Assembly: GCA_965368335.1 (NCBI GenBank)
Contig: CBDUMN010000005.1
Location: 105 to 64,104 of the forward strand
Origin: an uncultured Rhodospirillales bacterium
GTDB lineage: Bacteria; Pseudomonadota; Alphaproteobacteria; Rhodospirillales; JAPHRK01
Length of the DNA stretch: 64,000 nt
Direction: 5' to 3'
Below are positions 2,255 through 59,768 of this stretch, piece by piece (positions within the stretch are counted from its first letter, which is position 1; every line of letters begins with the position of its first letter). The translations under genes were made by a program, and so were the position numbers. A model generated the notes under the pieces. The model made no database searches. It saw nothing but the letters and a program-made list of their open reading frames with translations, and was not told where the DNA came from.

Positions 2255-3409
2255 TTAGTAATTTCCATTTGGCAATAAACTTTCCCACCCTTTCAAGAAT
2301 GTCCGCCCCATACGGCTTGAAACGCCGTTACGTTCGAACTCTTCGGATAGGGCGGTAATTTGGGCTTGCCTGGCTTCGTCTTCTTTGGTGAGGCTGAGTC
2401 GCCCATTTAGTTCGTCAAGCATCTCAATAACCAATCCATTGATTTCATCGGCGGTATTATCTCTGATGGGCCCGACATCGGAGTAGCGGTTGCGGTAAGG
2501 CGGTCGCATGGCTTCATCGAAGGAAATCGGCTTGTCGAGGCCGTCCAAGTGGAGCTTGGAGATATAGATGTCCCTTTTTGAGAAAGGCCGTTCGGAGAAA
2601 GGCGTGTTGTTGGCTTGGGCGACGGGAACGCCGAAAAGATCGGCGACGATCCAGGGGCCTGAGGTCGTGCCGAGGAAAAACCGGGCCGCAGCCATGAGGT
2701 AGATATCCAGCCAGTCGCTTCGGTCGTCGCTATGGGCGTAATCGATAACCTGAGGCATGGTCGGCAGAGGTGGCATTTGCGGGTGTCCTAGTCGGACAAT
2801 CCAGCCCCCGGCATTCGTAATGGTCTCTATCCCTTTGTAAAAGCTTTCAATCTCGGCGTTTCTGAAATCGTTAGCCGAATCGTCGATGGAAACATCATTT
2901 TCGAAAAAACGCTGATCTCTTACATGCAAGGCGACAAACCACGCATCACCCGGCAGACCGAGCTTTTTTAATGCTTTCTCACCCTTTTTCCGGTGCTCCT
3001 TTGTTAAGCTGAGAAGCGGCCCTCTTCCCTCATCTTCCCAAAGTTTGAAGAGGGCCACGGCGGCGCGGTCTTCATGGAGAATATTGCCGTCTGGAAAGCG
3101 GATATCCGATGCGTTGAAGGATGGCAGCTCCAAGGGATCTGCCTTTCGGGCGATTTCGATCCAGGGCTTGAAGTAACCAAGCAGGGTTTCGTTGGCGACC
3201 TCACCTTCGGGAGCCAGGACGACGCCTTTAAACGGTTCGGGGAACATACCCATTTCGGTCATCATGGCGAAAATACCCAACTGAAGGGCCGTTTCGCCAA
3301 TTCGTGTGACGAGAAAATTGGGTCGAAAGACGCGGTACTGAGTGGGAAGTTGCGGCAAGTCCTGCCCTTTGCTGTCTTGAATGGTTGTCAAGTTGCCTGG
3401 ATTTTTCAC
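2255..3409 (-). CDS. Hypothetical protein resembling the TIGR04372-type putative glycosyltransferase family
   Basis: Clean 384-codon ORF with a GTG start. The block ALHVRDQRFF...FRNAEIESFYKGIETITNAGGWIVRLG...VIDYAHSDDRSDWLDIYLMAAARFFLGTTSGP...FGVP matches my recollection of the TIGR04372 family pattern. This has not been verified by an HMM search. Confidence 0.5.
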   Translation of the reverse strand: MKNPGNLTTIQDSKGQDLPQLPTQYRVFRPNFLVTRIGETALQLGIFAMMTEMGMFPEPFKGVVLAPEGEVANETLLGYFKPWIEIARKADPLELPSFNASDIRFPDGNILHEDRAAVALFKLWEDEGRGPLLSLTKEHRKKGEKALKKLGLPGDAWFVALHVRDQRFFENDVSIDDSANDFRNAEIESFYKGIETITNAGGWIVRLGHPQMPPLPTMPQVIDYAHSDDRSDWLDIYLMAAARFFLGTTSGPWIVADLFGVPVAQANNTPFSERPFSKRDIYISKLHLDGLDKPISFDEAMRPPYRNRYSDVGPIRDNTADEINGLVIEMLDELNGRLSLTKEDEARQAQITALSEEFERNGVSSRMGRTFLKGWESLLPNGNY

Positions 3410-3482
3410 GGTTTTTATAGAAAAAACAACGCAGAAAGCTTAGTGTGTTAATGAATCGTTAATTTTGCGGGCTGGGTCTTCA

Positions 3483-4040
3483 ATGGCGCTGGTAAACCAA
3501 TCCGGGTCCTATCTCTCCTATCTTTCAAGCTCCTATCTGCTTGGGAGAGAGGAGCAATTGGATGGAAGCATTAACCAGACGCCTGCTGCCGATTCTCCTT
3601 TCGTGGTCCAAGATGTAATTACGATCTCCTCAGATGCTCAGAGCTTTCTGGAGGCCCAGGCAAAGGCGCAAGACCTGACTCCTGCGGCCGACCTTATCGC
3701 CGATCTGAAGTCGCATGGGAATTTGATATCAGCTTCTTTTGTCGGCAAAAACCTCCAAGGGATCGACCTGACCGGAGCTTTTCTCTACAAAGCTGATTTC
3801 AGTTCCGCCACGCTTGATTATTCCGTTTTGAAAGATGCTTGGCTTTCCGGTGCTGATTTTACCGGGGCAACGCTTATCGGCGCCGATTTGCGGGGCGCCA
3901 ATCTTAGCGGGGCGACAGGCTTGACCTCGGATGCCTTGCGTCATGCGCGTGTCGATACATCGACCTCGCTGCCCATTGGCGTTGTTTTGAAATCCACCGA
4001 GGACATCACCGAAGTCCGCCATCTGGACGTGGTCGCATAA
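3483..4040 (+). CDS. Pentapeptide-repeat protein
   Basis: The C-terminal half is consecutive A(D/N)LXX-type pentapeptides: NLQGIDLTGAFLYKADFSSATLDYSVLKDAWLSGADFTGATLIGADLRGANLSGATGL. The ATG at 3483 is preferred to the TTG at 3465. No signal peptide is seen. Confidence 0.8.
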   Translation: MALVNQSGSYLSYLSSSYLLGREEQLDGSINQTPAADSPFVVQDVITISSDAQSFLEAQAKAQDLTPAADLIADLKSHGNLISASFVGKNLQGIDLTGAFLYKADFSSATLDYSVLKDAWLSGADFTGATLIGADLRGANLSGATGLTSDALRHARVDTSTSLPIGVVLKSTEDITEVRHLDVVA

Positions 4041-4059: not shown

Positions 4060-4752
4060 TTATTTAGGCTTATGCCGCCACCAATATTCTTCATTGATCG
4101 AGAATACGGGAGCGTAATGCCGGATTGTTCTGGCTTCGACGACCTGTTTGATCTGGTTATCTAAGATGTAGGGGGTGTCGTTCAGATAGACCGCAAGAAT
4201 GGCGTGGCCGACCTTGAGGTTCATATCCTTTACTGCGACAATCCTCAGATCTTTGTCGGTGAAACCCAACAGCTTTAGGGAAACAAATTTGGAGATTGAA
4301 TAGTCTTCGCAATCTCCGAATTTGGCCATGAATTCGCCCGGTGTCGCCCAGTAGTCTTTTTGCCCCCAATTGACCTGATCGGTGATGTATCGCGCCTTGT
4401 TCATAAAGGCGTTAACCTCTTTCACCTGGGTGAGTTTATCCTTGCCTTCCAAGCTTTTGAGAAAAGTCATCCATTTGTCGTAGTGGCATTTGTTGAACTT
4501 TTTTTCCTTGCAATCGCCCGCTTTGATGCTGGCCTGTTCCTTGGAATAACGTTCAATGGCTCCCGTCCATTTCTTGAAAGGCTTAAAATTGCGGGAGCGG
4601 ATTTCTTTGGTATTGAAAAGCCCGTCTGGGTTGACCTTTTTAGCCTCTGCCCAGTTCTGAGGATGGACTGTGAACAAAAGGGCCAGAACGCCCAATAAAA
4701 GAGCCGTTTTTGCAGTACGTATTCTTTTGTTTCTTTGGTTTGCCTGTTTCAT
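4060..4752 (-). CDS. Periplasmic transglutaminase-like cysteine protease (BTLCP / Peptidase_C93, LapG-like)
   Basis: The start at M57 of the track ORF gives a Sec signal peptide (MKQANQRNKRIRTAKTALLLGVLALLFTVHPQNWAEA). The Cys-His-Asp catalytic constellation sits in its typical context: DYWATPGEFMAKFGDCEDYSISKF ... KVGHAILAV ... YILDN. The acidic DCED context matches the Ca-binding site of LapG-type enzymes. Confidence 0.85.
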   Translation of the reverse strand: MKQANQRNKRIRTAKTALLLGVLALLFTVHPQNWAEAKKVNPDGLFNTKEIRSRNFKPFKKWTGAIERYSKEQASIKAGDCKEKKFNKCHYDKWMTFLKSLEGKDKLTQVKEVNAFMNKARYITDQVNWGQKDYWATPGEFMAKFGDCEDYSISKFVSLKLLGFTDKDLRIVAVKDMNLKVGHAILAVYLNDTPYILDNQIKQVVEARTIRHYAPVFSINEEYWWRHKPK

Positions 4753-4960
4753 CCGGCTGCATGTTCCATTGGATCGTTTGACCAATGATATTGAGCCGCC
4801 TTGATTACGACAAGTATGGAAATCACAGTTCAAGCCGATTTGAAGCAGCGTGAGTTCAGCATCTATGGGGAGAATCATGTCGACTGTATTTCTCCCTTTA
4901 AGTCTTATGGGTGATAACATACGATGCTCAATCTAAAGGACTTTTTCCGGGGAGGCTCCA

Positions 4961-7096
4961 ATGGTGAACGAGGAAAAACAACAACCTCAAGAACAAGAGC
5001 CCAAAATCAAACGGGCGGTCAACTTCAAGGTTGCCGGAACCGTTGTTGCATTAGTGGCTATTGTCGCCGCCGGGGTTTTCTATGCTTTTAGTTTTGTCGA
5101 GGAAGAACGGCAAAGAGATCTGCAGGATTGGCAGATCAGATTGGGGATTGTCGCCGATAGCCGGGTAGCTGCCGTTTCCGATTGGGTCGATAAAAACTTT
5201 GCTTCCCTCCGTGAACTGGCGGAAAACGCCTCCCTGCAGCTTTATATGACCGAAATTCTGTTTGCCGAGGAAGAGGGCGGAGAGGCTATGGCCGAAGCCC
5301 AGGCGCAGGCGGGTTATTTGCGCAATCTATTGGTGGCGACGGCTGATCGGACCGGTTTCAGCGCCCCGCCGCCGAGCGGTGAAATCGCGGCCAACGTGGA
5401 GCGTGTCGGCGTTGCCGGAATCGCCCTATTGAATAAGGATGGGAAGCTCCTCGTCGCTTCGCCCGGCACCCCGCCCCCCTCGCCGGATATTAGGGCGGCT
5501 GTGGCGAAAGCTCTCGGCGGGAAACCGGTCTTGATCGATCTCTACAAAGGAGCGAGCGACGAAACGACCGTTGGTTTCGCCCTGCCCGTCTATGCCTTGC
5601 AAGGTGATGAAACGGAAGGCATTGGCGTCGTTTTGGGGATTAAGCTGATCGGTAAGGATTTCGTCAAAACTCTTGAGCAACCGGGAGAGATTCAAAAAAC
5701 CGCAGAGACCTATCTCGCCCGGAAAAATAATGGCGTGATTGAATATCTGACGCCTTTAGCCGATGGGACGCCGCCGCTTGAGAGAACGTTTGCCGCCGAT
5801 ACTCCCGATTTGGCTGCCGCTTTTGCCGTTGAAAAACCGGGCGGCTTTGGTATTCGCCGAGATTATACCGGAACGGAAGTTCTGGTGACTTCGCGCCCCA
5901 TTGCAGGAACCCCCTGGGTATTGGCGCGGAAAGTAGCGACATCCGAGGCTCTGGCTGAAACCGATACCCGCCTGCGGACGATTCTCGTGGTCTTCCTGCT
6001 GATTATCGGTGGGGTCAGTGTCACGATGGTTGCCGTTTGGCGTCATGGAACGTCGCTTCGCGCCGCCAAGGCCGCCGAACAATTTAAGCTGCAAATGGAG
6101 CGCTTTCAGAACCTTTCGAAGTTCCTCAATGTGGTCACAAACAGCCATCCCGCACATATTTTAGCGGTAACGGGGGAAGGCAATATCACTTTCGCCAATA
6201 AGCGGGCCGCCGACAGTGTGGATATGGAAGTCGACGACATGCTGGGCAAAAACATGTTCAATGTGATCGGCCCGATCCAAGCCAAGGCCTATCACGAAAT
6301 TAACAAAGAAGTGATTGAGAAGTTTGAGCCGCACAACGCCGTGCATCGGTTTGAAGAGGCGGATGGCGATTTGGTGATTAAATCCGATCATGTACCCTTG
6401 CGGGGCGACCGCGATTATCCTCCCTCCTCTCTGATGATTTTAGACGATATCACCGAATTGACCCGAGAGCGGGAGCGTCGGGAGCGGGTGATGCGACAGC
6501 TTGTTGAAACGCTGGTCAGCGTGGTTGACCGGCGCGACCCCTACTCCGCCAACCATTCGGCGCGTGTGGCTGAAGTTTCCCACGCTATTGGTCAGGAGAT
6601 GGGATTGGGCGAGTTGGAACAGCGGACGGTCGATATCGCCGGTAGCGTGATGAATCTCGGTAAGATCTTCATTCCGCCCGAATTGCTGACGAAAACCGGC
6701 AAGCTAACCGATGACGAGCGTGAGCAACTCAGCCGCAGTTTCGTCGTCAGCGCCGATCTGTTGAGCGGTGTTGAGTTTGACGGACCCGTGGTTGATACCG
6801 TGCGCCAGATTGGCGAGAGTTGGGATGGTGCGGGACCGCTTGGCATGAAGGGCGACGAAATTCTCGTCACCGCCCGAATTGTCGCTGTTGCCAACGTCTT
6901 TGTCGGTATGGTCAGCCCCCGAGCTTATCGCGACGCCATGACCTTCGAAAAGGTCGCGGCGATTCTTATGGAGGAAGCGGAAAAGAAGTTCGACCGCAAG
7001 GCCGTTGTCGCTCTGATCAACTATATCGAAAACCGGGGTGGCCGTCAGAAATGGGCCCATTATCGGGAAACGCCGCTCGATCAAGGAACGAGCTGA
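4961..7096 (+). CDS. Membrane receptor: TM, ~290-aa periplasmic Cache-like domain, TM, PAS, catalytically degenerate HD-GYP domain
   Basis: GGAGG lies 6 nt before the ATG. TM helices are at about aa 24-46 and 341-360. A PAS-like segment spans about aa 383-500. The HD-GYP fold signature is retained (DPYSANHSARV..., ..LGKIFIPPELLTKTGKLT.., ..WDGAGPLGMKGDEI..ARIVAVANVF) but the catalytic residues are substituted: HD->NL (aa 565-566), HHE->IGE (617-619), GYP->GPL (624-626), AD->AN (645). Confidence 0.85.
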   Translation: MVNEEKQQPQEQEPKIKRAVNFKVAGTVVALVAIVAAGVFYAFSFVEEERQRDLQDWQIRLGIVADSRVAAVSDWVDKNFASLRELAENASLQLYMTEILFAEEEGGEAMAEAQAQAGYLRNLLVATADRTGFSAPPPSGEIAANVERVGVAGIALLNKDGKLLVASPGTPPPSPDIRAAVAKALGGKPVLIDLYKGASDETTVGFALPVYALQGDETEGIGVVLGIKLIGKDFVKTLEQPGEIQKTAETYLARKNNGVIEYLTPLADGTPPLERTFAADTPDLAAAFAVEKPGGFGIRRDYTGTEVLVTSRPIAGTPWVLARKVATSEALAETDTRLRTILVVFLLIIGGVSVTMVAVWRHGTSLRAAKAAEQFKLQMERFQNLSKFLNVVTNSHPAHILAVTGEGNITFANKRAADSVDMEVDDMLGKNMFNVIGPIQAKAYHEINKEVIEKFEPHNAVHRFEEADGDLVIKSDHVPLRGDRDYPPSSLMILDDITELTRERERRERVMRQLVETLVSVVDRRDPYSANHSARVAEVSHAIGQEMGLGELEQRTVDIAGSVMNLGKIFIPPELLTKTGKLTDDEREQLSRSFVVSADLLSGVEFDGPVVDTVRQIGESWDGAGPLGMKGDEILVTARIVAVANVFVGMVSPRAYRDAMTFEKVAAILMEEAEKKFDRKAVVALINYIENRGGRQKWAHYRETPLDQGTS

Positions 7097-7171: not shown

Positions 7172-10100
7172 TTAGGTGGTTTCGTCCAGATTGAAGGTGA
7201 TGCTGGTATCGCCGTCGCTGTCGGCCACCTGATAACCGTCGCCATCGGCAGCGGTAAAGGTAAAGCTGTCGTTCTGGATATCCTGATCAGGACCGTCGAA
7301 GGTAACCGAGAACTTGACGTCATCGAAGTCGTTGTCGTTCTGGTGGTAGTAGTCGTTTTCAGCCCGATTGGCATCCAGATCCTCAAACCCGATGTGCAGT
7401 TCACCATCATCACCGATGCCGGATTTGACGTGAACCATGCCGTCGTCGTTGGTCGATGCATCGCCGGAATGGAAGTTGTCTCGTGAATCGACGGTAAGCG
7501 ACGGTTTGCCGGGAGCGACAATTCTCAAGTCGCCGCTGGAGTCGAACTCAAGATAGCGCTGGTCGTTATTCAGCAGAGACTCGAGGTTATCGTAATCCCC
7601 TCCGTCGTCGTAGGAATTTCTACTCACCTTGTCATCGGCGTTCTGAATGATGAAGAAACCGATTTCTTCGCCCGGGCTCAGGTTGTTGAAGGTTACTGAG
7701 CTGCCATCGACCACGAGATCGCCGCCGCTGCCCACTTGCGAGGCATTGTGCCAGATGATGTCCGGGTCACTGTAAGTTTGCTCGCCGGTTTGTGGATCGG
7801 TGGTGATCTTGTACCAACCAACAGCATTCTTATAGCCCGCCTCTTCACCCTGGAAGGTCACGGTCATGGAGTCCGCGCCGTCAGGAACCTTGAGGTTGTT
7901 GGAGTCGACGCCAATGGTCGCATTGTCCCAACTGGGTGTTGAGTTTTCCCATTGGAAGCTGAAGTCGTTGCTCGTTTGCTGATACTGGATAGTTCCGCTG
8001 TTGATATCTGCTTGAGTGAAGGTGTCGTTTACATCAAGCGGAATTTGCGCTCCGTTGGCATCGACCCTGTAGAGTGCGCCGAAGTCAGGAGCATCGGTTA
8101 GCGTAAAGGTAATGTCGTTTGCGCCGGATTCGGCGTCGGTGACAGTGATTTCACTGGCATCCAGTGTCATGGCCTGACCATCGGTGAAGTAGCCTTGCAG
8201 GTCGGTGGTCAATTGAGGCGTATCGTTGACGTTGGTGAAGTTGACCTGGGCAGCGACCGGGTCGCTGTAGGTCTGCCCATCGTCGCTGGCGGAAACGCTA
8301 AAGCTCGGTGCATCTTCGCCGCCGTCATGGGTGAAGCTCACCTTGCCCGCGGCCACGTCGGCCAGGGTGAAGGAAGAAGCTTCCACACCGTCCAGGGTGA
8401 ATGAGCCGTTGGCCACATTGCTTACCTGGATGGTGACCCCTGCATCTGCAGTATCCACGTCGGAGACGCCAAGGTCTGCGACGCCGACCCCCACGGTTGC
8501 GCCTTCCGAAACTACGAGGCTCGGAGCCGAGACCGTTGCTGCATCGTTGATCGCAGCCACATCGACCTTAACGGTAGCCGTTGTTGAACTGCCCTGCTTG
8601 TCGCTGATGGTGACGGTAAATTCGTCCTCGCCGGTGTAATCGTCAGTCGGCGTATAGGTGAAGGCGCCATCGGCCCCGAATGTCACCTCGCCATGCGCCG
8701 GGCCATCGGTTTCGCTGGCGAAGCTGTAGGTCAGTTCATCGCCGGTATCGCCGTCGGAGGCTTCGAGGATCGCGCTGAAGGTATCGTCCTCGCTCATGCC
8801 GACAAGATTGTCTTCATCGATTGTTCCATTGACGACCAGACCGTCGAAAACCGGCCCGTCGTTGGAGCCCTCGACTGTTACCGTCGCCGTGGCGGTATTG
8901 GTCTTGTAGCCGTCGCTCACTTCATAAGTGATGGTGACGGTTGCATTATCGCCTTCCGCCAGGCTGTCGAAATCAGTGCCCGGATCGAAAGTAATCGTGC
9001 CATCGCCATTAACCGAGACCTTGCCGCCGCCATCGACCGAAGCGTTGGAAACGCTCAGGGTGTCGCCGTCAGCGTCAGTATCATTTTCAAGTACATTGAT
9101 GGTGAGCGTTTCGTTCTCTCCACCAAACAATCCCGTATCAGCAACCGCATCCGGCGCTTCATTAACATCGGTCACAACCGGGTTCGGATCGCCTTCGTAA
9201 GATTCGTCATAGTTCCGGCTACCCGGTGTCGAGCTGACTTCGTCCCAATTGCCATAGACCGGATCAAGAACTGTGCCGTCTTCCGTGGTTTCCACCGTGA
9301 CGGTACGCTGATAGCCCGTGGTCAGGGTGGGCTGGACGAAGGTTTCGGTCACGATCGTATCGTAAGTGGTGATCGTATCGCCGGTTTCCAGATCGATGCT
9401 TTCAACGCCAGAGTTTTCGACATTATTGGTGACGCGGCTTGCCAGCGCGGGATCGCCAATGTCTTGGGTAACGGAATTTGTTTCGTAGGAGGTTACGAAA
9501 GTTGAATCCGCATTGTCGTTCGGCATGGTGACCGAAACTGTTCCGGTGCTTTCCTTAAAGTGGTCGGAAACGGTGTAGGTCAAGTCGAACGAACCATTCC
9601 AATTATCGTTAGGCGTAAAGGTCCACTCGCCTTCACCGGTTTTCTCTAATGTACCGTTGAGGTTTTCGCCGCTGACATTGGTGACGGACAGAGTGTCGCC
9701 GTCCGCATCCGTTGCGCTCTTCAACAGTTGCTCTTCGGTGATGACCAGGGCCGTATCTTCCGCCCCCGTCAGTTCGGCAAGACCCGCATCCGGCGCTTCA
9801 TTAACGTTGACTTCAACGTGATCAGGACCGGCTTCGGTCTTGTTTTCACTGTCTACGTCATTATCGACTGTCGTGTTGGCCCAATCGCCGTATTCCGTGT
9901 CGGTTTCGCCGCCAATGTATTCAGTGGTCGTCACGGTCCGTTCGGAAAGCACCATGTCGTATGGTGTTTCGTAGGTATTAACGACCGTGGTGTCATAGGT
10001 CGTGGTGACATCGCCGGTTTCCTGATCGGTTACCGATTCACCGCTTTCGCGATTGATGGTCGGTTCGCTGGTGTTGACCAAGCTGGTTTCGCCAGACACC

Positions 10101-13075
10101 TTGTTCGGCCCGTCGGACTCGGTGCTTTGGGTAACCTTGGCGAATGTCTCGCCATTCCACTCGAAGGAGCCGTTATCGAAGGTCAGGGTTTCAATATTGG
10201 AAACCATATCCGTACCATCGATGCCGACAACCGAGAAGGAGCCGTCTTCATTGGGGATCAGGTTGTAATCGGCTGAATTGCCGCTAAAGATGGCCGTGTC
10301 GGCACCTTCGCCGCCATCGAGAATGTCATCGCCTTCACCGCCGTCGAGAATATCATCTCCGGTTCCGGCATAAAGTGCGTTAACCTGGGCATCGCCAGTA
10401 ATATCGTCGTTACCGGGCGAGCCAACCACGTTTTCGATGTTGGTCAGCACATCGTCGCCGATGTAGTACGTATCGGTTGCGTCGGTTGCCGTGCCTTCTT
10501 CAAGGTTGACGTTGACGCCGTTCTCAGCACTTTCGAATTTGATCGTGTCGATTCCGTCACCGCCATCATAGGTGTCGTTGCCGCCGCCATGAGCCGCAAC
10601 GATGGTGTCGTTGCCTTCTCCGCCTTGGACGATGTCGTTGCCGTCGCTGGCTGTAATCGTGTCGTCGCCCGCACCGCCATCAATGGTGTCGTTGTCATCA
10701 CCACCGACAATCACGTCGTCGCCGTCGCTGCCGACAATCACGTCGTCGCCTGCGCCGCCATCGATATTATCGGCTCCATCCCCGCCGGTCAGGATGTCGT
10801 TACCGTCGGTGCCGGTGATCTGGTCGTCACCTTCGCCGCCGTCGATGGTGTCGTCTCCATCCCCGCCGCTCAAGGTATCGTCGCCAGTCGTGCCCTGAAT
10901 TTGGTCGTTGCCGCCGCCGCCATCGATCTGGTCATCGCCCGCGCCGCCGTCAATGACATCATCATCATCGCCACCAACGACTTCAATGCTTGTTGCTGCA
11001 AACTCACCAGTCGCAACGTCATAGGTCCCATCGGCAAATTCGATGGTTTCAATGCCGATCAGGGTATCGGTTCCGTCTCGGTCAGCAACAGAGTCGGCCA
11101 CCTGAAGGTTGTCGTCGACTTCCGAAATGGCATAGTCGGCATAGTTGCCGGAGAAGACCGCCGTATCCATACCGCCTTCACCGCCGTCGAGGGTGTCGTT
11201 GCCACCACGTCCTTCAAGGATATCGTCGCCATCCACGCCATCGGCACGATTGACGTCACTGCCGCCGCTTAAGACGTTGTCGCCGTCATCGCCGCGAATT
11301 TCGTCATTGCCGTCGCCGCCGATAACATTTTCGATTTCGCTCAAAGTGTCGCTGTTGATGTAGGGATCGACGCCTTCGGCGTCAGTCGCCGTGCCTTCTT
11401 CAAGGTCAACCAGCACACCTTGCGTGGAACTATCGAAATCAATGGTGTCGATGCCGTCGCCGCCGTCGTAGGTATCGTTTCCGCCGCCGTGGGCAGCATC
11501 GATACTGTCGTTGCCTGCGCCCGCATCCACGATGTCATCGCCGTCGCCTGAGGAAATAGAGTCGTCGCCCGAACCCGTCGTAATGTTATCGTTCCCGGAC
11601 CCGGTCGTCACTTGGTTGTCGCCATCGCCAGCGTTGATGGTGTTGTTGCCGTTTCCGGCGTTGATAATGTCATTGCCCGAACCGGTGGTGATGTTGTCAT
11701 CGCCAGAGCCGGTCGTGATATCGAGGTTGTTCGTATTATCCGATTCGTCCATGTTGATGGGCACGTCAGAATTCGGATCGGAGAAGCTGGTTACGCCCTC
11801 TCCTAAGCCAACATGCCGTACGCCGTCGTCACCGATATAGTCGAAAGAGCCTTCTGGGGTATTGCTACCCGTACCGGTTTCAGGACCGCCGTTTAATGGA
11901 TCTGCACCCTCATCAGCACCAATGGTCGTCGGTTGATTGCCAACACCGAGTCCATTGGTGGGGTTGCTGTCCGCACCGCCGTCAAAGCCTTCGATTTGAT
12001 TCGTGTCGGTATCGTTGATTGCGACAGTGCTGGAATTGGTTGTTTGCGAGGTGTCGGGAGTTTCATCAGAACCCGGAATGAGTTCTTCATTGCCGCCTGC
12101 CGCCGTGGCGAAATCATCAAAATTCCCGACGTTCTGCATGCCGTAATCGTTGCCGGTACCGACTTCAGTAGGCAGATATTCAAAAGTCGTGCCGTAGATA
12201 TTGATCAGTTGATCTTCGGAAACTTCAAAAATTTCAACTGGAGGCAGATCGAAACCTTTTACGATGGTGCCGAAACCGGCCATGTTGATGATTTTGGTGC
12301 CGCCTTCGTTCCAGACGACGATTTCACCAACGAAGCCGTCGGATTCTTCCATCAGAACCACTTGCAAGTCTTCACCGTTGGCAAAGTCGACCCCGACCTG
12401 GGTGCCGCGAATACCGATGGTCGCCACCGGGGTTTCGATGGTCATGGCGTCCGGGTCGGTCTTGGCGACCTGGCCGGAAACGAAGGTGAACACGCCCTTT
12501 ACAACCGAGAAATTCATGCTGCCCGCGTCGGTGCCCGGGTCGTAGACCATTTCATCAAGGACCATGGAGCCGTTTTCGGCCATGGAGAAGGTCGTCTGGT
12601 CAGCCAAAATAATCCCGACCGCACCTTCGGGACCGGTTTCAAGAGCGTCGCCCTGATAAACCGGATCGCCAACATCGAGTTGGACCTTGGTGCCGTCGTT
12701 TCGGATAACGTAGACATCACCATCCATCTGATCGACGTGGCCGATAGGTTCGCCCGCTTGAGGGCCGCCCGCTTGAGCGTATTCGCCCGGGTTCATCGGC
12801 CCAGCCAGCTTGGTAACCAACTCACCGGTAAGGCGGCCACCGGTTTCGGTCATCAATGTGGCTTGAGGCTCTGAGGCGAAATAGTCCTCAACGACGGTTG
12901 TCGAGCCGTCGTTTTGCGTAATGACAAGATCTTGCCCGTCCCGCTCAAAAGCGTCGCTACCAACGGTTACCCCCGCAGGAAGCTGAACTGTGTTGTCGGG
13001 AGAGATTTGAACGACCGATGCGTCTGAGGTGTCAGTTACGTCGGTGCCTTCTGTGTTGTCATTATCCAGGGCCAT
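7172..13075 (-). CDS. Giant (~1,967 aa) repeat adhesin: N-terminal retention/FecR-like region, TAAG motif, RTX Ca-binding repeats, cadherin-like/VCBS-type domains, C-terminal DUF4114-like domain
   Basis: Single open frame. GGAGG lies 5 nt upstream of the ATG at 13073-13075 (M7 of the track ORF). Many GGxGxD nonapeptides are present (GSGDDNITTGSGNDIINAGNGNNTINAGDGDN...). Repeated V(N/D)EAPDA...DADGDTLSV...GT..F.P modules are present. The C-terminal block is GFFIIQNAD...DDGMVHV...HIGFEDL...NDNDFDDVKFSV. Confidence 0.9.
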   Translation of the reverse strand: MALDNDNTEGTDVTDTSDASVVQISPDNTVQLPAGVTVGSDAFERDGQDLVITQNDGSTTVVEDYFASEPQATLMTETGGRLTGELVTKLAGPMNPGEYAQAGGPQAGEPIGHVDQMDGDVYVIRNDGTKVQLDVGDPVYQGDALETGPEGAVGIILADQTTFSMAENGSMVLDEMVYDPGTDAGSMNFSVVKGVFTFVSGQVAKTDPDAMTIETPVATIGIRGTQVGVDFANGEDLQVVLMEESDGFVGEIVVWNEGGTKIINMAGFGTIVKGFDLPPVEIFEVSEDQLINIYGTTFEYLPTEVGTGNDYGMQNVGNFDDFATAAGGNEELIPGSDETPDTSQTTNSSTVAINDTDTNQIEGFDGGADSNPTNGLGVGNQPTTIGADEGADPLNGGPETGTGSNTPEGSFDYIGDDGVRHVGLGEGVTSFSDPNSDVPINMDESDNTNNLDITTGSGDDNITTGSGNDIINAGNGNNTINAGDGDNQVTTGSGNDNITTGSGDDSISSGDGDDIVDAGAGNDSIDAAHGGGNDTYDGGDGIDTIDFDSSTQGVLVDLEEGTATDAEGVDPYINSDTLSEIENVIGGDGNDEIRGDDGDNVLSGGSDVNRADGVDGDDILEGRGGNDTLDGGEGGMDTAVFSGNYADYAISEVDDNLQVADSVADRDGTDTLIGIETIEFADGTYDVATGEFAATSIEVVGGDDDDVIDGGAGDDQIDGGGGNDQIQGTTGDDTLSGGDGDDTIDGGEGDDQITGTDGNDILTGGDGADNIDGGAGDDVIVGSDGDDVIVGGDDNDTIDGGAGDDTITASDGNDIVQGGEGNDTIVAAHGGGNDTYDGGDGIDTIKFESAENGVNVNLEEGTATDATDTYYIGDDVLTNIENVVGSPGNDDITGDAQVNALYAGTGDDILDGGEGDDILDGGEGADTAIFSGNSADYNLIPNEDGSFSVVGIDGTDMVSNIETLTFDNGSFEWNGETFAKVTQSTESDGPNKVSGETSLVNTSEPTINRESGESVTDQETGDVTTTYDTTVVNTYETPYDMVLSERTVTTTEYIGGETDTEYGDWANTTVDNDVDSENKTEAGPDHVEVNVNEAPDAGLAELTGAEDTALVITEEQLLKSATDADGDTLSVTNVSGENLNGTLEKTGEGEWTFTPNDNWNGSFDLTYTVSDHFKESTGTVSVTMPNDNADSTFVTSYETNSVTQDIGDPALASRVTNNVENSGVESIDLETGDTITTYDTIVTETFVQPTLTTGYQRTVTVETTEDGTVLDPVYGNWDEVSSTPGSRNYDESYEGDPNPVVTDVNEAPDAVADTGLFGGENETLTINVLENDTDADGDTLSVSNASVDGGGKVSVNGDGTITFDPGTDFDSLAEGDNATVTITYEVSDGYKTNTATATVTVEGSNDGPVFDGLVVNGTIDEDNLVGMSEDDTFSAILEASDGDTGDELTYSFASETDGPAHGEVTFGADGAFTYTPTDDYTGEDEFTVTISDKQGSSTTATVKVDVAAINDAATVSAPSLVVSEGATVGVGVADLGVSDVDTADAGVTIQVSNVANGSFTLDGVEASSFTLADVAAGKVSFTHDGGEDAPSFSVSASDDGQTYSDPVAAQVNFTNVNDTPQLTTDLQGYFTDGQAMTLDASEITVTDAESGANDITFTLTDAPDFGALYRVDANGAQIPLDVNDTFTQADINSGTIQYQQTSNDFSFQWENSTPSWDNATIGVDSNNLKVPDGADSMTVTFQGEEAGYKNAVGWYKITTDPQTGEQTYSDPDIIWHNASQVGSGGDLVVDGSSVTFNNLSPGEEIGFFIIQNADDKVSRNSYDDGGDYDNLESLLNNDQRYLEFDSSGDLRIVAPGKPSLTVDSRDNFHSGDASTNDDGMVHVKSGIGDDGELHIGFEDLDANRAENDYYHQNDNDFDDVKFSVTFDGPDQDIQNDSFTFTAADGDGYQVADSDGDTSITFNLDETT
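10289..11728 (-). repeat. Coding region for RTX (hemolysin-type Ca-binding) nonapeptide repeats, organised as two ~300-aa duplicated super-modules
   Basis: ORF residues about 456-935. The blocks AAHGGGNDTYDGGDGIDTI(D/K)F...LEEGTATDA...IENV.G..GND...DTA.FSGN.ADY occur twice, exactly 300 codons apart (nt 11129-11497 and 10244-10597). Confidence 0.85.
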
Positions 13076-13119
13076 TTCCGCCTCCATTAGCACCCGAATT
13101 TAATAAATCGCTCTTCGGC

Positions 13120-26319: not shown

Positions 26320-26431
26320 CAAAGAACTTAAATTCAATTTTTAAACGCATAAATTTCCGCGTTTAATTTTTCTCGATCAACCAGGATTCGCCGAACCGCG
26401 GCGCATCCACATCGACGGGGGATATACTGGC

Positions 26432-27727
26432 ATGTCGAATAAAACCTTTACGTTGACGGATAACGCTACGGGAAAATCTTACGAACTTCCCGTGATGTCC
26501 GGCTCCACCGGACCCAATGTTATCGACGTCCGTAAGCTGTACGCCGAAACCGACCACTTTACCTACGACCCTGGTTTTACTTCCACGGGTTCGTGCGAGT
26601 CGAAAATCACCTTCATTGACGGCGATAAAGGCATCCTGATGCACCGCGGCTATTCCATCGAGGAACTGGCCGTTCACTCGGATTTTATGGAAGTTTGCTA
26701 CCTGCTGCTTTACGGGGAGCTTCCGACGGCTGAACAAAAGGAAAACTTCGAGTTCAAAATCACGCATCACACCATGTTGCATGAGCAGTTGAACCATTTC
26801 TACCAGGGCTTCCGCCGCGATTCCCACCCCATGGCCATTATGTGTGGCGTTGTTGGCGCTCTGTCGGCCTTCTATCACGACAGCCTTGATATCAGCGATC
26901 CCTGGCACCGTATGGTTGCTTCCTATCGTTTGATCGCCAAGATGCCGACGATTGCCGCCAACGCCTTCAAATATTCGCAAGGTCAGCCGTTTATCTATCC
27001 GCGCAACGACCTGGGCTATTCCGAGAACTTCCTCCATATGATGTTCGCTACGCCCTGCGATGAATACAAGGTAAACCCCGTTCTCGCCCGCGCTATGGAT
27101 CGCATCTTGATCCTCCATGCCGATCATGAGCAAAATGCATCGACCTCGACGGTCCGCCTTTCCGGTTCTTCCGGGGCCAACCCGTTTGCTTGTATCGCCG
27201 CTGGTATCGCTTGCCTCTGGGGCCCTGCTCACGGCGGCGCCAACGAAGCTGTTTTGAATATGCTGGAAGAAATCGGCAGCAAAGATCGTATCCCCGAGTT
27301 CATTAAGCGGGCGAAGGACAAAGACGATCCCTTCCGCCTTATGGGCTTTGGGCACCGGGTTTACAAAAACTACGATCCACGCGCTAAGGTCATGCAGCAG
27401 ACTTGCCACGAAGTTCTCGATGAACTGGGCGTTAAGGATGAGCCGCTTCTCGAGTTGGCGATGGAACTGGAGCGCATCGCGCTTGAAGACGATTACTTCG
27501 TCAAGAAGAAGCTGTTCCCGAATGTCGATTTCTACTCGGGCATTATCTTCCGCGCCATGGGCATTCCGGTTTCCATGTTTACCGTGCTCTTCGCCATGGC
27601 CCGTACGGTTGGCTGGGTTGCTCAGTGGAACGAGATGATTGAAGATCCCTCGCAGAAAATCGGTCGTCCGCGTCAGCTCTACACCGGCGAAACGGTGCGT
27701 CAGTATGTTCCGCTGCACCAGCGTTAA
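26432..27727 (+). CDS. gltA: Citrate synthase (type II)
   Basis: 431 aa with [28 protein letters not shown] and [14 protein letters not shown] catalytic motifs. Confidence 0.95.
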
Positions 27728-27746
27728 GTGACGTTCAAGCAATAAG

Positions 27747-27783
27747 AAAGGCGCGGCTTCCAATGGGCCGCGCCTTTTTTCTT
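27747..27783. terminator. Bidirectional rho-independent terminator shared by gltA (+) and gloA (-)
   Basis: Perfect 11-bp stem aaaggcgcggc / gccgcgccttt with a 9-nt loop, flanked by an A-run on one side and a T-run (tttttt) on the other. Confidence 0.8.
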
Positions 27784-49639: not shown

Positions 49640-50929
49640 TCAGCGTTTCTTGTAAAATTCCCGGCAGGCGGCAGCGATTTCCGCTTCGTCTTCACGGCCC
49701 AGGAGTTCTCCATTGAGGTATAACCGTTTGTTGTTCAGGTTGAACCGTACTTTACCGACCTTAAAGGACCCGCTCGGTGTTTTAGCCGCTTTTTTATAGG
49801 TTGAAATAAGGTCGCTATTGGCTGTCGTGGCTTCGCTGGCGGCTTCTTCCGTCTCACTGGCGCTAGATGAGAGAGTTGATGCTGCAGACCGAAGGTCGCT
49901 AACCGTTGCCTCTTCTGCATAGCCAATGCCTTCGGCAGCAGAAACCGCTTCTTCGGCGGCTGTTTGAGCTGCCGCTCCGTCGCTATTGGCAACGGCTGTT
50001 TCTGCCGATGAGACAGCGGTCGTTACGGTCTCAACGGCCGTATTGGCTTCTTCCAAACTGTCGTAAGCGGTTTCCATGGCCGTTTTGAGGGCATCGTTAC
50101 TTTTATCGGCCTGATAAGCATCAACCGCAGCATCATAAGCCTCCCGAGCATCTTGCTGAAGGGACTCCGCCCCGCTTAAGGCTTCCTGTGCTGAATAGAG
50201 AGAGGCCTGAGCCGAGGCTTTCGAAGCCGACGATGCAGCGCTTGTCGCTTGGGAAGCTTTAGTATCCCCATCAATGGCTTCATCAGATGCCTCGGCGGAA
50301 GAATTTGCGGCGCTCGAACTTGATGAAACCTGGGTATAGACAGACTGAGCCTCGGATAGATCGGTTTCGGCGGTTTCAAGCGTCGCGATGGCGTCGTTCA
50401 AAGTATCTTTCAATGCATCTTTTGTCGCTGGCGTTCTATTTTCATAGGCCTCCAGGGCCGTTTCATAGTCTCCAAGCGCGGTATCGTAGGTTGATTGGGC
50501 GTTGTCATAGACTGCCTGGGCGGCCTCGGCTGTCGTTTCGGCTTCGCTTGCAGCAGAAAGAGCGGAACTGGCCGCCGCAACTGCTTTTGCCGACGCGGTT
50601 GCCGCCGCTTGGGCGGCTTTGGCTTTTTCCTCAGGTGCGCCCATATAGCGCCCTGCATCGATGGAAATATCGAAGGTGATTTCATCGGGCAGCTTGAAAT
50701 TCATCCCGCCTTGCAGATCTGCCGGAGCGACTTTTTTTCCGCGCACATCAACGCCTGGTCTGTATTCGACATCCGCCCGGGCTTGATGATTAACCAGCCG
50801 ATTGCAGATGCGTTTGGAGACCTTGATCTTTTGTTTGACCGGTTCGGTTGCCTGCTCTCCTCCTTCTTCAGCAAATGAATTTGGAGATAGGCCAAGCAAA
50901 ACCAGTGAAATCGGTAGCAGCCATTTCAT
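49640..50929 (-). CDS. Secreted hypothetical protein: small conserved-looking N- and C-terminal segments split by a ~280-aa Ala/Ser/Thr/Glu-rich low-complexity region
   Basis: Signal peptide MKWLLPISLVLLGLSPNSFA. N-terminal segment ...VEYRPGVDVRGKKVAPADLQGG.... Long helical-looking A/S/T/E region with recurring A.AYD.A...Y..AL motifs. C-terminal segment FKVGKVRFNLNNKRLYLNGELLG. Confidence 0.7.
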   Translation of the reverse strand: MKWLLPISLVLLGLSPNSFAEEGGEQATEPVKQKIKVSKRICNRLVNHQARADVEYRPGVDVRGKKVAPADLQGGMNFKLPDEITFDISIDAGRYMGAPEEKAKAAQAAATASAKAVAAASSALSAASEAETTAEAAQAVYDNAQSTYDTALGDYETALEAYENRTPATKDALKDTLNDAIATLETAETDLSEAQSVYTQVSSSSSAANSSAEASDEAIDGDTKASQATSAASSASKASAQASLYSAQEALSGAESLQQDAREAYDAAVDAYQADKSNDALKTAMETAYDSLEEANTAVETVTTAVSSAETAVANSDGAAAQTAAEEAVSAAEGIGYAEEATVSDLRSAASTLSSSASETEEAASEATTANSDLISTYKKAAKTPSGSFKVGKVRFNLNNKRLYLNGELLGREDEAEIAAACREFYKKR

Positions 50930-55953: not shown

Positions 55954-56734
55954 GGCCGAGATCCTGTGGAAAGAAAATATCCGCTGCCGTAATGTGACGT
56001 CGATTGCCCTCAGTCTCAAGGATCAAAGCGCCTTCCTCGTCCATTCCGGCGAATTTTCCTTCAAGAGTTTCCTTGCCCAGGCGGGCAATTACCGTTCCCC
56101 CGATCCCTTTGGCATTGGCAAGCCAGGCATTGCGGATCGGTTCAAACCCCTGAACCGACCAACGGTCAAACCATGCCTCAAAATGTTGAGCAAATCCTTC
56201 CAGCACGCTTTCAACCGTCATACCGCTGGTGATACCGAAGGATGTGGCGGGAAACTCCGTTTCTTCCGGGTGATGAGAAACATTAACTCCGACCCCCAGG
56301 ACCAGCCAATCGAGCCCTGGATTGTGGTTTCCTTGTGATGCTTTCGCCTGACATTCCAGAAGGATACCGGCGACTTTCTTGCCGTTAAGCAGCACGTCGT
56401 TGGGCCATTTACAGGCTATTTCCGGCCGATCAAAGGGAGCCGAGGCCTCTCTCAAGGCCTCTGTAACGGCCAAAGATGCGGCAAAACTGAGTTGAGCAGC
56501 TTCTGCAACAGACTTTTCCGACCGCAAAATTAAAGAACAATAGAGATTACCCGGCTCGGAAACCCAGGTCCGCCCGCGCCTGCCCCGCCCGGCAGACTGG
56601 CTATGCGCCCAGATGAGCGTTCCATGGGCTGCGCCCTCAGCCGCCATACGGCGGGCCTGTTCATTGGTGCTATCCAGAGACTCAAAGGCCACCAGCTGAT
56701 AAGCCGGTGGCACTTTGGGAAGATTTCTGTCCAT
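55937..56734 (-). CDS. birA: Biotin--[acetyl-CoA-carboxylase] ligase (no N-terminal HTH)
   Basis: QSAGRGRRGRTWVS (GRGRxGR motif), KWPNDVLLNGKKVAGIL. Confidence 0.9.
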   Translation of the reverse strand: MDRNLPKVPPAYQLVAFESLDSTNEQARRMAAEGAAHGTLIWAHSQSAGRGRRGRTWVSEPGNLYCSLILRSEKSVAEAAQLSFAASLAVTEALREASAPFDRPEIACKWPNDVLLNGKKVAGILLECQAKASQGNHNPGLDWLVLGVGVNVSHHPEETEFPATSFGITSGMTVESVLEGFAQHFEAWFDRWSVQGFEPIRNAWLANAKGIGGTVIARLGKETLEGKFAGMDEEGALILETEGNRRHITAADIFFPQDLGHAAGN

Positions 56735-56758
56735 TAAGAGGCGAACCCCTATTCCTCC

Positions 56759-58219
56759 TTATCCGCCGCTGAACAACGATGCGGCAGCAGCGCTCGCGCT
56801 ATCGACAATCGGAGCCGGGAAGACGAAGAAGAAGAGAATGATGGCGGATGTTGCAATAAGGATGGCCGTCATTTCCCGCCCAATCGGCTTGTCGAAGGCA
56901 TCCAAAGCTTCATCGAAGTACATAATCTTGATGATGCGGATGTAATAGAACGCGCCGACAACGCTCGAAAGTACGCCGATGACCGCCAAGGCATAGAATT
57001 CAGCCTGAATGGCGGCCAGGAAGATGTACATCTTGCCAAAGAAACCGGCCAGCGGCGGAATACCCGCCATGGAGAACATGAACATCGCAAGGACGAAAGC
57101 CATGGCCGGATTGGTTTTACCAAGGCCCGCAAGATCATCAATGCCTTCGACCATACGCCCGCCCCGGCTCATGCAGAGAATGCAGGCAAAGGTGCCGACA
57201 TTCATGAACAGGTAGATGGCCATGTAGACCAGCACCGCCTGAACGCCCGCTTCATTGCCAACCGCAATACCGATCAGAGCATAACCAATGTGACCGATGG
57301 AGCTGTAAGCCATCAGTCGCTTGATGTTTTTCTGGACGATGGCGGCGAAAGCGCCGAGAACCATGGAGCCGATGGAGATCAGGATAATGATTTGCTGCCA
57401 CTGAGCGACCAGTTCGCCGAACGGGCCAGTCATAACCCGCATCAACAGCGCAATGGCGGCGATTTTCGGCGCAACGGCGAAGAAAGCCGTTACAGGCGTC
57501 GGAGCCCCTTCATAAACGTCGGGCGTCCACATATGGAAGGGTACGGCGGAAATCTTGAAAGCCAGACCGGCCAACAGGAATACCAGGCCGACAACGACGC
57601 CGGTGGAAATGTGTCCGTGGCTATTGTGGAAGACTTCGGCCAGTCCCTGGAAGCTCGTGGTGCCGGTGAAACCGTAGATCATCGAGCTGCCGTAGAGCAG
57701 CATGCCGGAAGCCAATGCGCCCAGAACGAAGTATTTAAGTCCGGCTTCGGAAGACCGTAGATCGTCCCGCTGGAAAGCGGCCATGACGTAGAGCGACAGG
57801 CTCTGCAGTTCCAGGCCGACGTAAAGCGACAGCAGGTTGTTGGCCGAGATCATCATCATCATGCCAAGCGTGGCGAGCAAAACGAGGATTGGGTACTCGA
57901 ACTTGGCTGAATTGGCCCGCTTCATGTAGCCGTAAGACATGATCAGCGTCAGGATCGATCCCAACAGCACCAAGGCTTTGGTAAAGCCCGCAAAGGTGTC
58001 GTTGATGAACATGCCGCTAAACGTGGTGACCTTTTCGAACGAGAAGGCCGAGAGCAGCAACAGCGCCAGAGCCATGGTCAAAACCGCCAGGAAGGTGATT
58101 GTTTTGGCCGCCCCTTTGTCTGTCTGGAACACGCCCAGGACCAGCAGCGCCATGGCGATACATGCGATGAACACTTCCGGCATGGCCGGAATGAGGTTCG
58201 GAAGTTCCGCAGTCGTCAT
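56759..58219 (-). CDS. nuoN: NADH-quinone oxidoreductase subunit N
   Basis: 486-aa polytopic antiporter-like subunit, last gene of the nuo block. Confidence 0.9.
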
Positions 58220-58232
58220 CGAACTCTACTCC

Positions 58233-59750
58233 TTAGCGCGCCGCAACGGCCGGGTTGTTGGCCGCGGCAACCGCCGCATTGAACTGCTCGATCAAGTTAT
58301 CGACCGAAACATGCATGGGATCGAGGAAGGACGACGGATAGACGCCCATCCAGAAAGTGATAATGATCAGAGGCGCAAACACCAGCCACTCCCGCGCCGA
58401 CATATCGGTGACAGACTTCAGGTTTTCCTTGGTCAAGGCCCCGAAAATCACCCGGCGATAGAGGTAAAGCATATAGGTCGCACCGAGAACCAAGCCTGAG
58501 GCGGCCAAAGCCGCAACGACCGTATTGGCTTGGAATGCGCCGAGCAGCACCATGAATTCACCGACGAACCCGCCAGTACCCGGAAGTCCGACTGACGCCA
58601 GCATGAAGACCATGAAGGTTAACGCATAGCCCGGCATGTTGTTGGCCAAACCGCCGTAAACGGCGATTTCACGACTGTGAATGCGGTCATAGACCACGCC
58701 GACGATTAGGAAGAGCGCGGCGGAAACTACGCCGTGGCTCAGCATCTGGTAGATCGCCCCTTCAATGCCGTGCGCCGTCAGGGTAAACGACCCAAGGGTC
58801 ACATAGCCCATGTGAGCGACGGAGGAATAAGCGATCAGCTTTTTCATGTCTTCCTGCGCCAGAGCAACCAGCGAGGTATAGACGATGGCGATGATACTCA
58901 GCGTATAGACCAGCGGAACGAAATCGACGGTCGCTAGCGGCAACATCGGAATGGAGAACCGCAGAAAACCGTAACCGCCCATCTTCAAGAGCACACCGGC
59001 CAGAATGACCGAACCGGCGGTCGGCGCTTCCACGTGAGCGTCCGGCAGCCAGGTGTGAACCGGCCACATGGGAACCTTCACCGCAAAGGATGCGAAGAAA
59101 GCCAGCCAGAGCCAAGTCTGCATACCTGCCGGGAAGCCGTAGGTCAGCAAGGTCGGGATATCGGTGGTGCCCGCTTCGAAATACATAGCGAACATGGCCA
59201 GCAGCATCAGGACAGAGCCGAACAGCGTATAGAGGAAGAACTTAAACGCCGAGTAGACGCGGCGCGGCCCGCCCCAGATCCCGATAATCAGGAACATGGG
59301 GATCAGCACGCCTTCGAAGAAGATGTAGAAGAGCACCATATCGAGGGCGCAGAACATACCGACCATCAAGGTTTCGAGAACCAGGAAGGCGACCATATAT
59401 TCGCGCACATGCTTTTTGACCGCTTCCCAGGCTGAGAGAATGCACAGCGGGGTTAAGAAGGTTGAGAGCATGACGAAGAACATGGAAATGCCGTCGACGC
59501 CCATATGGTAGGTGATTCCAAGAGCCGGGAACCATTCGGCCCGTTCTTCAAACTGGAAGGCTGCGGTGCCGTTATCGAAATTCGCCCAGATGAACAGGGA
59601 AATGACGAAGGTGGCGATTGACGTCCAGAGCGCGGTCGAGCGGGCATTGCTCGCGGCAACCTCGCTATCGCCCCGGATCAGCAGCAGGATGATGGCCGCC
59701 CCTACCAAGGGGAGGAAGGTCACCAACGAAAGAATGGGTAATTCAGTCAT
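58233..59750 (-). CDS. nuoM: NADH-quinone oxidoreductase subunit M
   Basis: 505 aa. [28 protein letters not shown] motif. Confidence 0.9.
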
Positions 59751-59768
59751 CGTTGCATCAACCTCTGC

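Follow-up and report, generated by a model that had tools for sequence, protein, structure and literature searches.

Why a cell should keep an HD-GYP domain whose catalytic residues have gone is the question raised by a gene near the beginning of a 64,000-nucleotide (nt) stretch of DNA (the window) from an uncultured Rhodospirillales bacterium, contig CBDUMN010000005.1. The gene encodes a membrane protein, called the receptor in what follows. A reading of the letters alone, made without database searches (the sequence-only reading), had described an HD-GYP domain in this protein with nearly all metal-binding residues replaced, and had proposed a non-catalytic role for it, such as ligand sensing or docking. 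Both parts of this description are borne out, and the role becomes more specific given that the receptor belongs to the DvhD family and that genes for a LapG-like protease and a giant adhesin lie beside it. [quoted passage not shown] DvhD itself, DVU1020 of Desulfovibrio (Nitratidesulfovibrio) vulgaris Hildenborough, serves as c-di-GMP receptor in a Lap-like system for adhesin release, called Dvh (PMC10990149; PMC13090378).

Domain organization of the receptor

Pfam matches, a transmembrane scan, an AlphaFold2 model and Foldseek comparisons yield a layout consisting of a transmembrane segment, a periplasmic dCache domain, a second transmembrane segment, a PAS domain, a helical stalk and the HD-GYP domain. 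Positions are those of the window, and residue numbers (aa, amino acids) are those of the receptor.

4961..7096 (+): DvhD-like receptor gene, 711 aa, open reading frame (ORF) intact
aa 24-46 and aa 339-360: transmembrane segments TM1 and TM2, hydrophobic, ends approximate
5099..5974 (+): dCache domain in the periplasm, aa 47-338, presumably the output face turned to the LapG-like protease
6143..6463 (+): cytoplasmic PAS domain, aa 395-501 (Pfam PAS_4, E 8.8e-6; TIGR00229, E 8e-9)
aa 498-525: stalk helix
6509..7000 (+): degenerate HD-GYP domain, predicted c-di-GMP binding module, aa 517-680 (Pfam HD_5, E 1.5e-30)

Since the hydrophobic segments lie on either side of the dCache domain, this domain is placed in the periplasm and both PAS and HD-GYP in the cytoplasm. 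The Pfam dCache_1 match (aa 65-322, E 1e-9) falls under the gathering score, and the only NCBIfam match, to a model for HD-GYP response regulators, is partial and lies far below threshold. The AlphaFold2 model of the whole receptor has a mean predicted local distance difference test score (pLDDT) of 82.9.

Loss of the HD-GYP metal site

The metal site was mapped by HMMER alignments to PmGH (4mcw), V-cGAP3 (5z7c) and DvhD (9rbz), and these agree with MAFFT alignments in which 120 homologues stand alongside DvhD and some 70 canonical HD-GYP domains. The "close homologues" counted here and below are the best 120 of 875 matches (E ≤ 1e-5) from a search of 5.8 billion proteins with the receptor. 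In PmGH, the metal ligands are E185, H189, H221, D222, H250, H276, H277 and D305 (PMC4159591); seven of these eight are replaced in the receptor, leaving H532 as the sole survivor.

aa 528: Y528, in place of PmGH E185
6554..6556 (+): H532, equivalent to PmGH H189 and DvhD H527, the only metal ligand kept; His in 117/120 homologues
6650..6655 (+): M564-N565 in place of HD, equivalent to PmGH H221-D222 and DvhD S559-Q560; Asn nearly universal in the family
6737..6739 (+): S593 for the third His ligand (PmGH H250); Ser or Ala in 113/120 homologues
6809..6817 (+): I617-G618-E619 in place of HHE, equivalent to PmGH H276-H277-E278 and DvhD M612-N613-E614; E619 invariant
6833..6838 (+): G625-P626, GYP minus its Tyr by a one-residue deletion; the equivalent of DvhD Y621 and PmGH Y285 is gone
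6893..6895 (+): N645 for the last Asp ligand (PmGH D305); DvhD likewise has Asn (N641)

Most of what the sequence-only reading had proposed for individual residues stands in these formal alignments: the retention of H532 alone, the loss of the following His in the segment LSRSF, the change of HHE to IGE at aa 617-619 and that of the Asp of AD.YD to Asn at aa 645. Two assignments had to be shifted. The loss of HD is real, but HDxGK lines up with M564-N565-L566-G567-K568, and the replacing residues are thus MN rather than the NL of aa 565-566 (nt 6653-6658) that had been named. Likewise, the GYP Tyr is indeed missing, but GPL occupies aa 625-627 (nt 6833-6841) instead of aa 624-626, and profile alignments show a deletion of the Tyr, not a change of YP to PL. 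Among positions that are not ligands, D183, K225, E278, R314 and K317 of PmGH are matched by D526, K568, E619, R654 and R657, while the structural D308 corresponds to V648.

Active HD-GYP phosphodiesterases hold their metals with seven or eight ligands (E/D, H, HD, H, HH, D), as do PmGH, PA4781 (4r8z) and V-cGAP3, which hydrolyse cyclic dinucleotides; the receptor shares their fold (template modelling score, TM-score, 0.79 to PA4781) and keeps one ligand. Single Ala substitutions essentially abolish the activity of PmGH at six of its eight ligands and markedly reduce it in E185A and D305A (PMC4159591), whereas in the receptor seven ligands are gone together. In DvhD, a comparably degenerate site with SQ for HD and MN for HH binds no metal and does not hydrolyse c-di-GMP with any added cation (PMC13090378). 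The earlier judgement that phosphodiesterase activity is very unlikely is therefore supported. Hydrolysis by a non-canonical or metal-independent mechanism, or with a metal site made of other residues, could appeal to the retention of D526, K568, E619 and H532, yet it is highly improbable. A metal site of other residues was considered and rejected: the domain contains just two His, H532 and the non-conserved H541, so that an alternative His-based site is not plausible.

Conservation of the degenerate site

Whether relatives share the substitutions had been raised as a check on the sequence-only reading, and they do. The 120 close homologues are full-length proteins of 55-95% identity from alphaproteobacterial metagenome-assembled genomes (MAGs; Rhodospirillales, Magnetovibrionaceae, Thalassospiraceae), and essentially all display the signature H-MN-K-[S/A]-[M/I/L]GE-G-P-N. 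The replaced positions are themselves conserved (N565 in 110/120, G618 in 108/120, N645 in 117/120), as is E619 (120/120), and none of the 120 has a Tyr between G and P. A contig scan for receptor loci gave three matches only, all in MAGs.

When 1.84 billion cluster representatives were searched exhaustively with HMMER, the wider family came to at least 770 clusters (50% identity) at E ≤ 1e-30. The best 150 of the 770 representatives are nearly all full length, with 34-59% identity, and the 141 of them with a complete HD-GYP domain were used for signature counts. An intact HD or HHE occurs in none of the 141, and Asn is almost universal both at the position of the Asp of HD and at that of the last Asp, giving a common signature 'xN ... 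xxE ... G(x)P ... N'. The GYP Tyr is more variable, being present in 18 representatives, deleted in 57 and replaced by another residue in the rest. Within the receptor, the HD-GYP domain and the preceding stalk are the best-conserved parts; the periplasmic dCache domain is also highly conserved, with 49 invariant columns among 40 homologues.

The loss of so many catalytic residues might be taken for the decay of a pseudo-enzyme that no longer has a maintained function. This is the least probable of the explanations considered, with the ORF intact, the HD-GYP domain the most conserved part of a family of this size, and the replacing residues, including the G-P motif, held in place. The persistence of the dead-site signature across homologues shows that it reflects neither chance nor a pseudogene, and decay was rejected on these conservation data.

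Relationship to DvhD

By far the closest sequence matches in the PDB are two DvhD entries titled 'HD domain/sensory box protein', 9rc0 (E 9e-39) and 9rbz (E 1.3e-37); the best active HD-GYP enzymes reach about 1e-20 in the same single-sequence search. With the family profile, 9rc0 is matched over aa 402-696, which spans PAS, stalk and HD-GYP, at E 2.2e-56, compared with 2.9e-25 for the best active enzyme, and bit scores are 133-195 to DvhD versus 72-92 to active enzymes. Structural comparison gives the same ranking. In a Foldseek search of the PDB with the AlphaFold2 model, the DvhD PAS/HD-GYP structure 9rc0 ranks first, followed by four chains of the c-di-GMP-bound DvhD HD-GYP domain 9rbz (TM-score 0.85-0.87, 36% identity). 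For the periplasmic part, the best structural match is the DvhD dCache domain 9rc2 (E 5.6e-10, TM-score 0.78, 17% identity), ahead of generic dCache structures (3lif, TM-score 0.55); a phmmer search of the PDB with the periplasmic and PAS part returned no match, and the likeness of the two dCache domains is visible by structure only. Because DvhD fragments are the top match for every domain, the homology between receptor and DvhD spans all three modules.

Neighbour-joining (NJ) trees place the query family and DvhD in a clade apart from canonical HD-GYP domains, in 97/100 bootstraps in a first run that kept the signature columns and had undefined distances for very divergent pairs, and in 45/50 in a repeat for which distances were capped and those columns taken out; these are simple NJ trees with limited outgroup sampling, and attraction between fast-evolving dead domains may contribute to the grouping. 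The canonical outgroup and additional DvhD-clade fragments came from a query of the 5.8-billion-protein index with the DvhD HD-GYP domain, which returned only proteins of ≤350 aa.

The two proteins have the same order of transmembrane segments, dCache, PAS, stalk and degenerate HD-GYP domain. HD, HHE and the last Asp are gone from both, Asn standing at this last position in each; both adjoin a LapG-like protease of the BTLCP type, and each goes with a giant adhesin that has a TAAG-type site. They differ in the replacing residues (MN, S and IGE in the receptor; SQ, H and MNE in DvhD), in the GYP Tyr, which DvhD keeps as Y621, and in their hosts, here an uncultured marine alphaproteobacterium (Rhodospirillales-like) and there a sulfate reducer. 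Judged from sequence, the receptor is a member of the DvhD family in its architecture, its degenerate site, its phylogeny and the pairing of its gene.

The D. vulgaris system has been reconstituted in P. fluorescens, where DvhD confers c-di-GMP-dependent control of the protease DvhG (Karbelkar et al., 2024; PMC10990149), and three DvhD structures, 9rbz, 9rc0 and 9rc2, have since been reported (Font et al., 2026; PMC13090378). DvhD binds c-di-GMP with a dissociation constant of 99-322 nM (PMC13090378; PMC10990149). The stalk helices splay when it binds, a change suggestive of signalling from the inside out towards dCache (PMC13090378).

Equivalents of the DvhD residues that contact c-di-GMP

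The contacts of DvhD with c-di-GMP fall into a canonical site and a dimer-bridging site (PMC13090378). They were transferred to the receptor with DvhD numbering taken as the 9rbz position plus 490, an offset derived from the HMMER alignment and the residues named in that paper.

Canonical site, DvhD to receptor: Y523 to Y528; L577 to L582; K582 to R587; Y621 deleted
Canonical site, continued: M646 to M650; R650 to R654; Y652 to Y656; E668 to E672
Dimer-bridging site, DvhD to receptor: K520 to R525; P567 to P572; R569 to E574

In the sequence alignment, six of the eight canonical contacts are thus identical, one is conservatively replaced (Lys to Arg) and one, Y621, is deleted; together with the bridging site, where Pro is kept, Lys is Arg and Arg is Glu, this pattern fits binding but falls short of proof. 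The nucleotide-binding Arg/Lys of the loop after helix alpha10 are common to the receptor and active HD-GYP enzymes. The DvhD mutations that hurt c-di-GMP binding most are R650A, Y652A/R653A and P567T (PMC13090378), and the equivalents of these residues are kept in most close homologues: R654 in 118, R657 in 120, Y656 in 108 and P572 in 93 of the 120, with the P567 equivalent also present in 126 of the 141 representatives. Since the equivalents of these mutated residues are among the most conserved in the family, nucleotide binding by the receptor is likely to be retained.

The neighbouring protease and adhesin

The receptor gene is flanked on both sides by genes that resemble components of the Dvh system.

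4060..4752 (-): LapG/DvhG-like periplasmic cysteine protease (BTLCP, Peptidase_C93), divergent, upstream of the receptor gene
7172..13093 (-): giant LapA/DvhA-like adhesin, 1973 aa, convergent, downstream of the receptor gene (Pfam)
12095..12106 (-): T330-A331-A332-G333, predicted LapG-type cleavage site, sole [T/A/P]AA[G/V] motif in the adhesin

The protease ORF extends over 4060..4920 (-), and its probable start at Met57 gives the coordinates above, with about 230 aa and a signal-peptide-like N-terminus; orthologues are 213-234 aa long. It matches Peptidase_C93 (E 6e-19) and the NCBIfam LapG model (E 5e-28, under the equivalog cutoff), as well as the LapG structures 4fgo and 4u65_E (about 5e-20), with GDCED, VGH and ILD aligned. 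In these alignments, the C-H-D triad and the adjacent calcium-binding D-x-E motif are intact. Unlike DvhG, which has a transmembrane helix and a long linker, the protease has an apparent cleavable signal peptide. Most DvhG orthologues have signal peptides, and the supplement of the 2026 paper notes them in alphaproteobacterial DvhG orthologues (PMC13090378). The divergent orientation of the two genes is a further difference from the DvhD system.

A Peptidase_C93 gene adjoins the receptor gene not only in the window but also in all five other loci with enough flanking sequence (L007, L008, L010, L012 and L013; 36-60% identity). The locus in the complete 2.96-Mb genome CP128988.1 (L010, 7348..10076) encodes P0387, the representative closest to DvhD, with the signature H-AN-K-H-KQE-GYP-N; its gene lies directly downstream of the Peptidase_C93 gene in the same direction, like the dvhG-dvhD operon, and no adhesin gene was found within 8 kb of it. 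In another locus (L012, 1..8680), the neighbours of a family member are a Peptidase_C93 gene, one for a trypsin-like protease, a TolC-like (OEP) gene and another PAS/HD_5 paralogue, which suggests that receptors are duplicated in some genomes. In the window, a TIGR04372-family glycosyltransferase gene (E 8e-52; 2255..3409, -) and a pentapeptide-repeat gene (3465..4040, +) adjoin the LapG-like gene, an arrangement also seen in the near-identical contigs L004-L006. Glycosyltransferase genes lie near some alphaproteobacterial DvhDG loci (PMC13090378, neighbourhood table), and a link of this neighbour to adhesin glycosylation is possible.

The adhesin consists of an N-terminal prefix with a FecR-like retention-type domain, RTX repeats, and cadherin-like and Ig-like repeats. 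Its N-terminal region has a match in the ice-binding adhesin of Marinomonas primoryensis (MpIBP; N-terminal domain, 5ix9_A, E 2.4e-4), whose membrane-anchoring domain is cited as the archetype of the retention module (PMC13090378). The TAAG motif stands directly after this module and ahead of an acidic low-complexity stretch. An adhesin gene of like type and position is found in loci L004, L006 and L008, and in L008, where the system is 60% identical, 'F-x-TAAGG-N' is kept at the equivalent place. The RTX repeats occupy the middle of the protein (aa ~450-1000), and the C-terminal ~250 aa (7172..7900, -; GFFIIQNA ... HIGFEDL ... DFDDVKF) look DUF4114-like by eye. LapA-like adhesins usually have an RTX block and secretion signal at the C-terminus, and by eye the adhesin here looks different.

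Proposed mechanism and its ligand

By analogy with experiments on DvhD and LapD, the receptor would bind c-di-GMP without hydrolysing it, signal from the inside out and control the protease. The nucleotide would occupy, with no metal involved, the former active-site cleft of the dead HD-GYP dimer and probably the dimer-bridging site as well; the stalk would rearrange on binding, and the signal could run by way of PAS and the transmembrane helices to dCache in the periplasm, which would restrain the LapG-like cysteine protease encoded next to the receptor. With c-di-GMP high, the protease would be inactive, the RTX/cadherin adhesin would remain plugged in its outer-membrane pore and cells would adhere. 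At low c-di-GMP, the protease would cut the adhesin at TAAG (A331-A332), after the periplasmic retention module, and the adhesin would be released.

Several points weigh against this proposal. Identity to DvhD is low, at about 38% for HD-GYP and about 17% for dCache. The GYP Tyr is deleted in the receptor, as it is throughout the 120 close homologues. The Glu that gives DvhD its guanine specificity (E668) has an equivalent that varies between Glu, Asp and Gln across the family, and R569 of the bridging site is Glu in the receptor; given these two changes, affinity or specificity could differ from those of DvhD. A single TAAG motif is not rare by chance (0.41 expected per shuffled protein), and its weight rests on its position and conservation, not its count. 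Type I secretion system (T1SS) genes (ABC transporter, membrane fusion protein, TolC-like) are absent from the ORFs of the 64-kb window, another difference from the DvhD system, and may be encoded elsewhere in the genome.

The changes in the binding site would also fit a receptor of the same architecture and with the same protease partner, but with a ligand other than c-di-GMP, such as 3'3'-cyclic GMP-AMP (3'3'-cGAMP) or the linear dinucleotide pGpG, or with a markedly different affinity or stoichiometry. DvhD Y621 and PmGH Y285 hydrogen-bond a phosphodiester of c-di-GMP (PMC13090378; PMC4159591), and it is this contact that the close homologues lack; furthermore, the affinity of DvhD for 3'3'-cGAMP is only ~5-fold below that for c-di-GMP (PMC13090378). 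An altered ligand is nonetheless unlikely. Of the eight canonical contacts, seven persist unchanged or with a conservative replacement, the Arg residues and the clamp formed by L582, Y656 and M650 among them; the base-specifying residue is Glu (E672) in this receptor; and the activity of PmGH Y285A is not substantially reduced, so the Tyr is not essential for nucleotide binding (PMC4159591).

A related idea, which is perhaps slightly easier to credit though still improbable, concerns the 'G-P' subclade without the Tyr, which takes in every one of the 120 close alphaproteobacterial homologues and some 40% of family representatives. Its members might have a changed specificity or binding mode: they might, for instance, favour 3'3'-cGAMP or pGpG, have lost the bridging site (R569 to Glu) or act as coincidence detectors together with a dCache ligand. 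If so, the subclade would constitute a functionally distinct receptor class within a very large, mostly uncharacterised family. The natural variation of the GYP Tyr offers a ready test of which contacts matter for nucleotide binding.

Comparison with other regulatory systems

The job proposed here for the receptor is that of LapD in Pseudomonas fluorescens: an inner-membrane c-di-GMP receptor, derived from a degenerate c-di-GMP-metabolising domain, that sends an inside-out signal to a periplasmic domain controlling LapG and hence adhesin release. The folds, however, are unrelated, LapD being built from a LapD/MoxY periplasmic domain, a HAMP domain and degenerate GGDEF-EAL domains. The receptor has no LapD-type domain in Pfam or NCBIfam, no sequence similarity to LapD was found, and no LapD structure appears among its PDB sequence or Foldseek matches; the two are alike in function alone. 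DvhD-type systems reportedly lack the Trp mechanism of LapG docking (PMC13090378).

Other HD-GYP proteins, among them Bd1817, HnoD and ECA3548, have lost catalytic residues and taken up regulatory, non-enzymatic roles, as proposed for the receptor. PA2572, with YN-GYP, is another degenerate HD-GYP protein of this kind. In contrast to the receptor, a dCache/PAS membrane protein paired with a LapG-like protease, these four are soluble and mostly REC- or PilZ-linked cytoplasmic proteins, and the likeness of the receptor to other degenerate HD-GYP proteins is far lower than to DvhD (Bd1817, E 0.077).

These proteins raise the possibility that the signal runs from the outside in, with the dCache and/or PAS domain sensing an environmental ligand and the dead HD-GYP domain merely docking cytoplasmic partners (GGDEF, EAL, PilZ), in the manner of RpfG, HnoD and PA2572. 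Both dCache and PAS are typical input domains, the periplasmic domain is highly conserved, and action of a degenerate HD-GYP domain through protein contacts is known from HnoD and from ECA3548 with its PilZ partner domain (bioRxiv 10.1101/2021.11.05.467447). Such a sensor is nevertheless unlikely, slightly more so than an altered ligand: conservation extends beyond the mere fold to the nucleotide-contact residues, and the conserved neighbour is a periplasmic protease rather than a cytoplasmic c-di-GMP enzyme. The two directions are not exclusive, and dual input (coincidence detection) is possible, as in LapD. The outside-in sensor and the altered ligand are thus minor alternatives, partly compatible with a DvhD-type c-di-GMP receptor, while a non-canonical enzyme and decay are effectively excluded.

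Breadth of the DvhD family

As the DvhD mechanism is already published, the receptor adds breadth rather than a new principle. Font et al. analysed 78 RefSeq homologues of DvhD (PMC13090378). Their Supplementary Data 1 lists alphaproteobacterial homologues with their neighbourhoods, from Pelagibius, Kiloniella, Fodinicurvata, Sneathiella, Denitrobaculum and Oceanibacterium, and DvhD/DvhG pairs of Kiloniella, Sneathiella, Pelagibius and Fodinicurvata are thus already on record there (PMC13090378). What is new is the size of the family, with all sampled members degenerate (141/141), the common signature and the large Tyr-less subclade. The family is large and ancient, far broader than the published set, and abundant in uncultured marine Rhodospirillales-like alphaproteobacteria, and the reuse of a dead HD-GYP domain as the c-di-GMP receptor of a Lap-like adhesin switch would accordingly not be confined to sulfate reducers.

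Automated annotation labels homologues in databases as 'HD-GYP domain-containing protein (c-di-GMP phosphodiesterase class II)' or 'HD domain-containing phosphohydrolase'. For these proteins, the phosphodiesterase or phosphohydrolase label is almost certainly wrong, and it would inflate counts of c-di-GMP-degrading enzymes in such genomes.

Other genes in the window

The remaining genes of the window are housekeeping genes, including mfd, recG, lexA, gltX, the citrate synthase gene, lpx genes, bamA, dnaE, nuo and others. A 429-aa ORF at 49640..50929 (-), between prolyl-tRNA synthetase-like and permease genes, matches no Pfam family at E ≤ 1e-3. Another ORF without a family match, of 466 aa at 26363..27763 (-), was rejected as a gene, being the antisense shadow of citrate synthase (26432..27727, +; Citrate_synt, E 5e-142). 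Finally, 56000..64000 has a strong positive AT skew on the plus strand (+0.19 to +0.21), which coincides with minus-strand genes for nuo membrane subunits and is therefore a coding-composition effect, not an anomaly.

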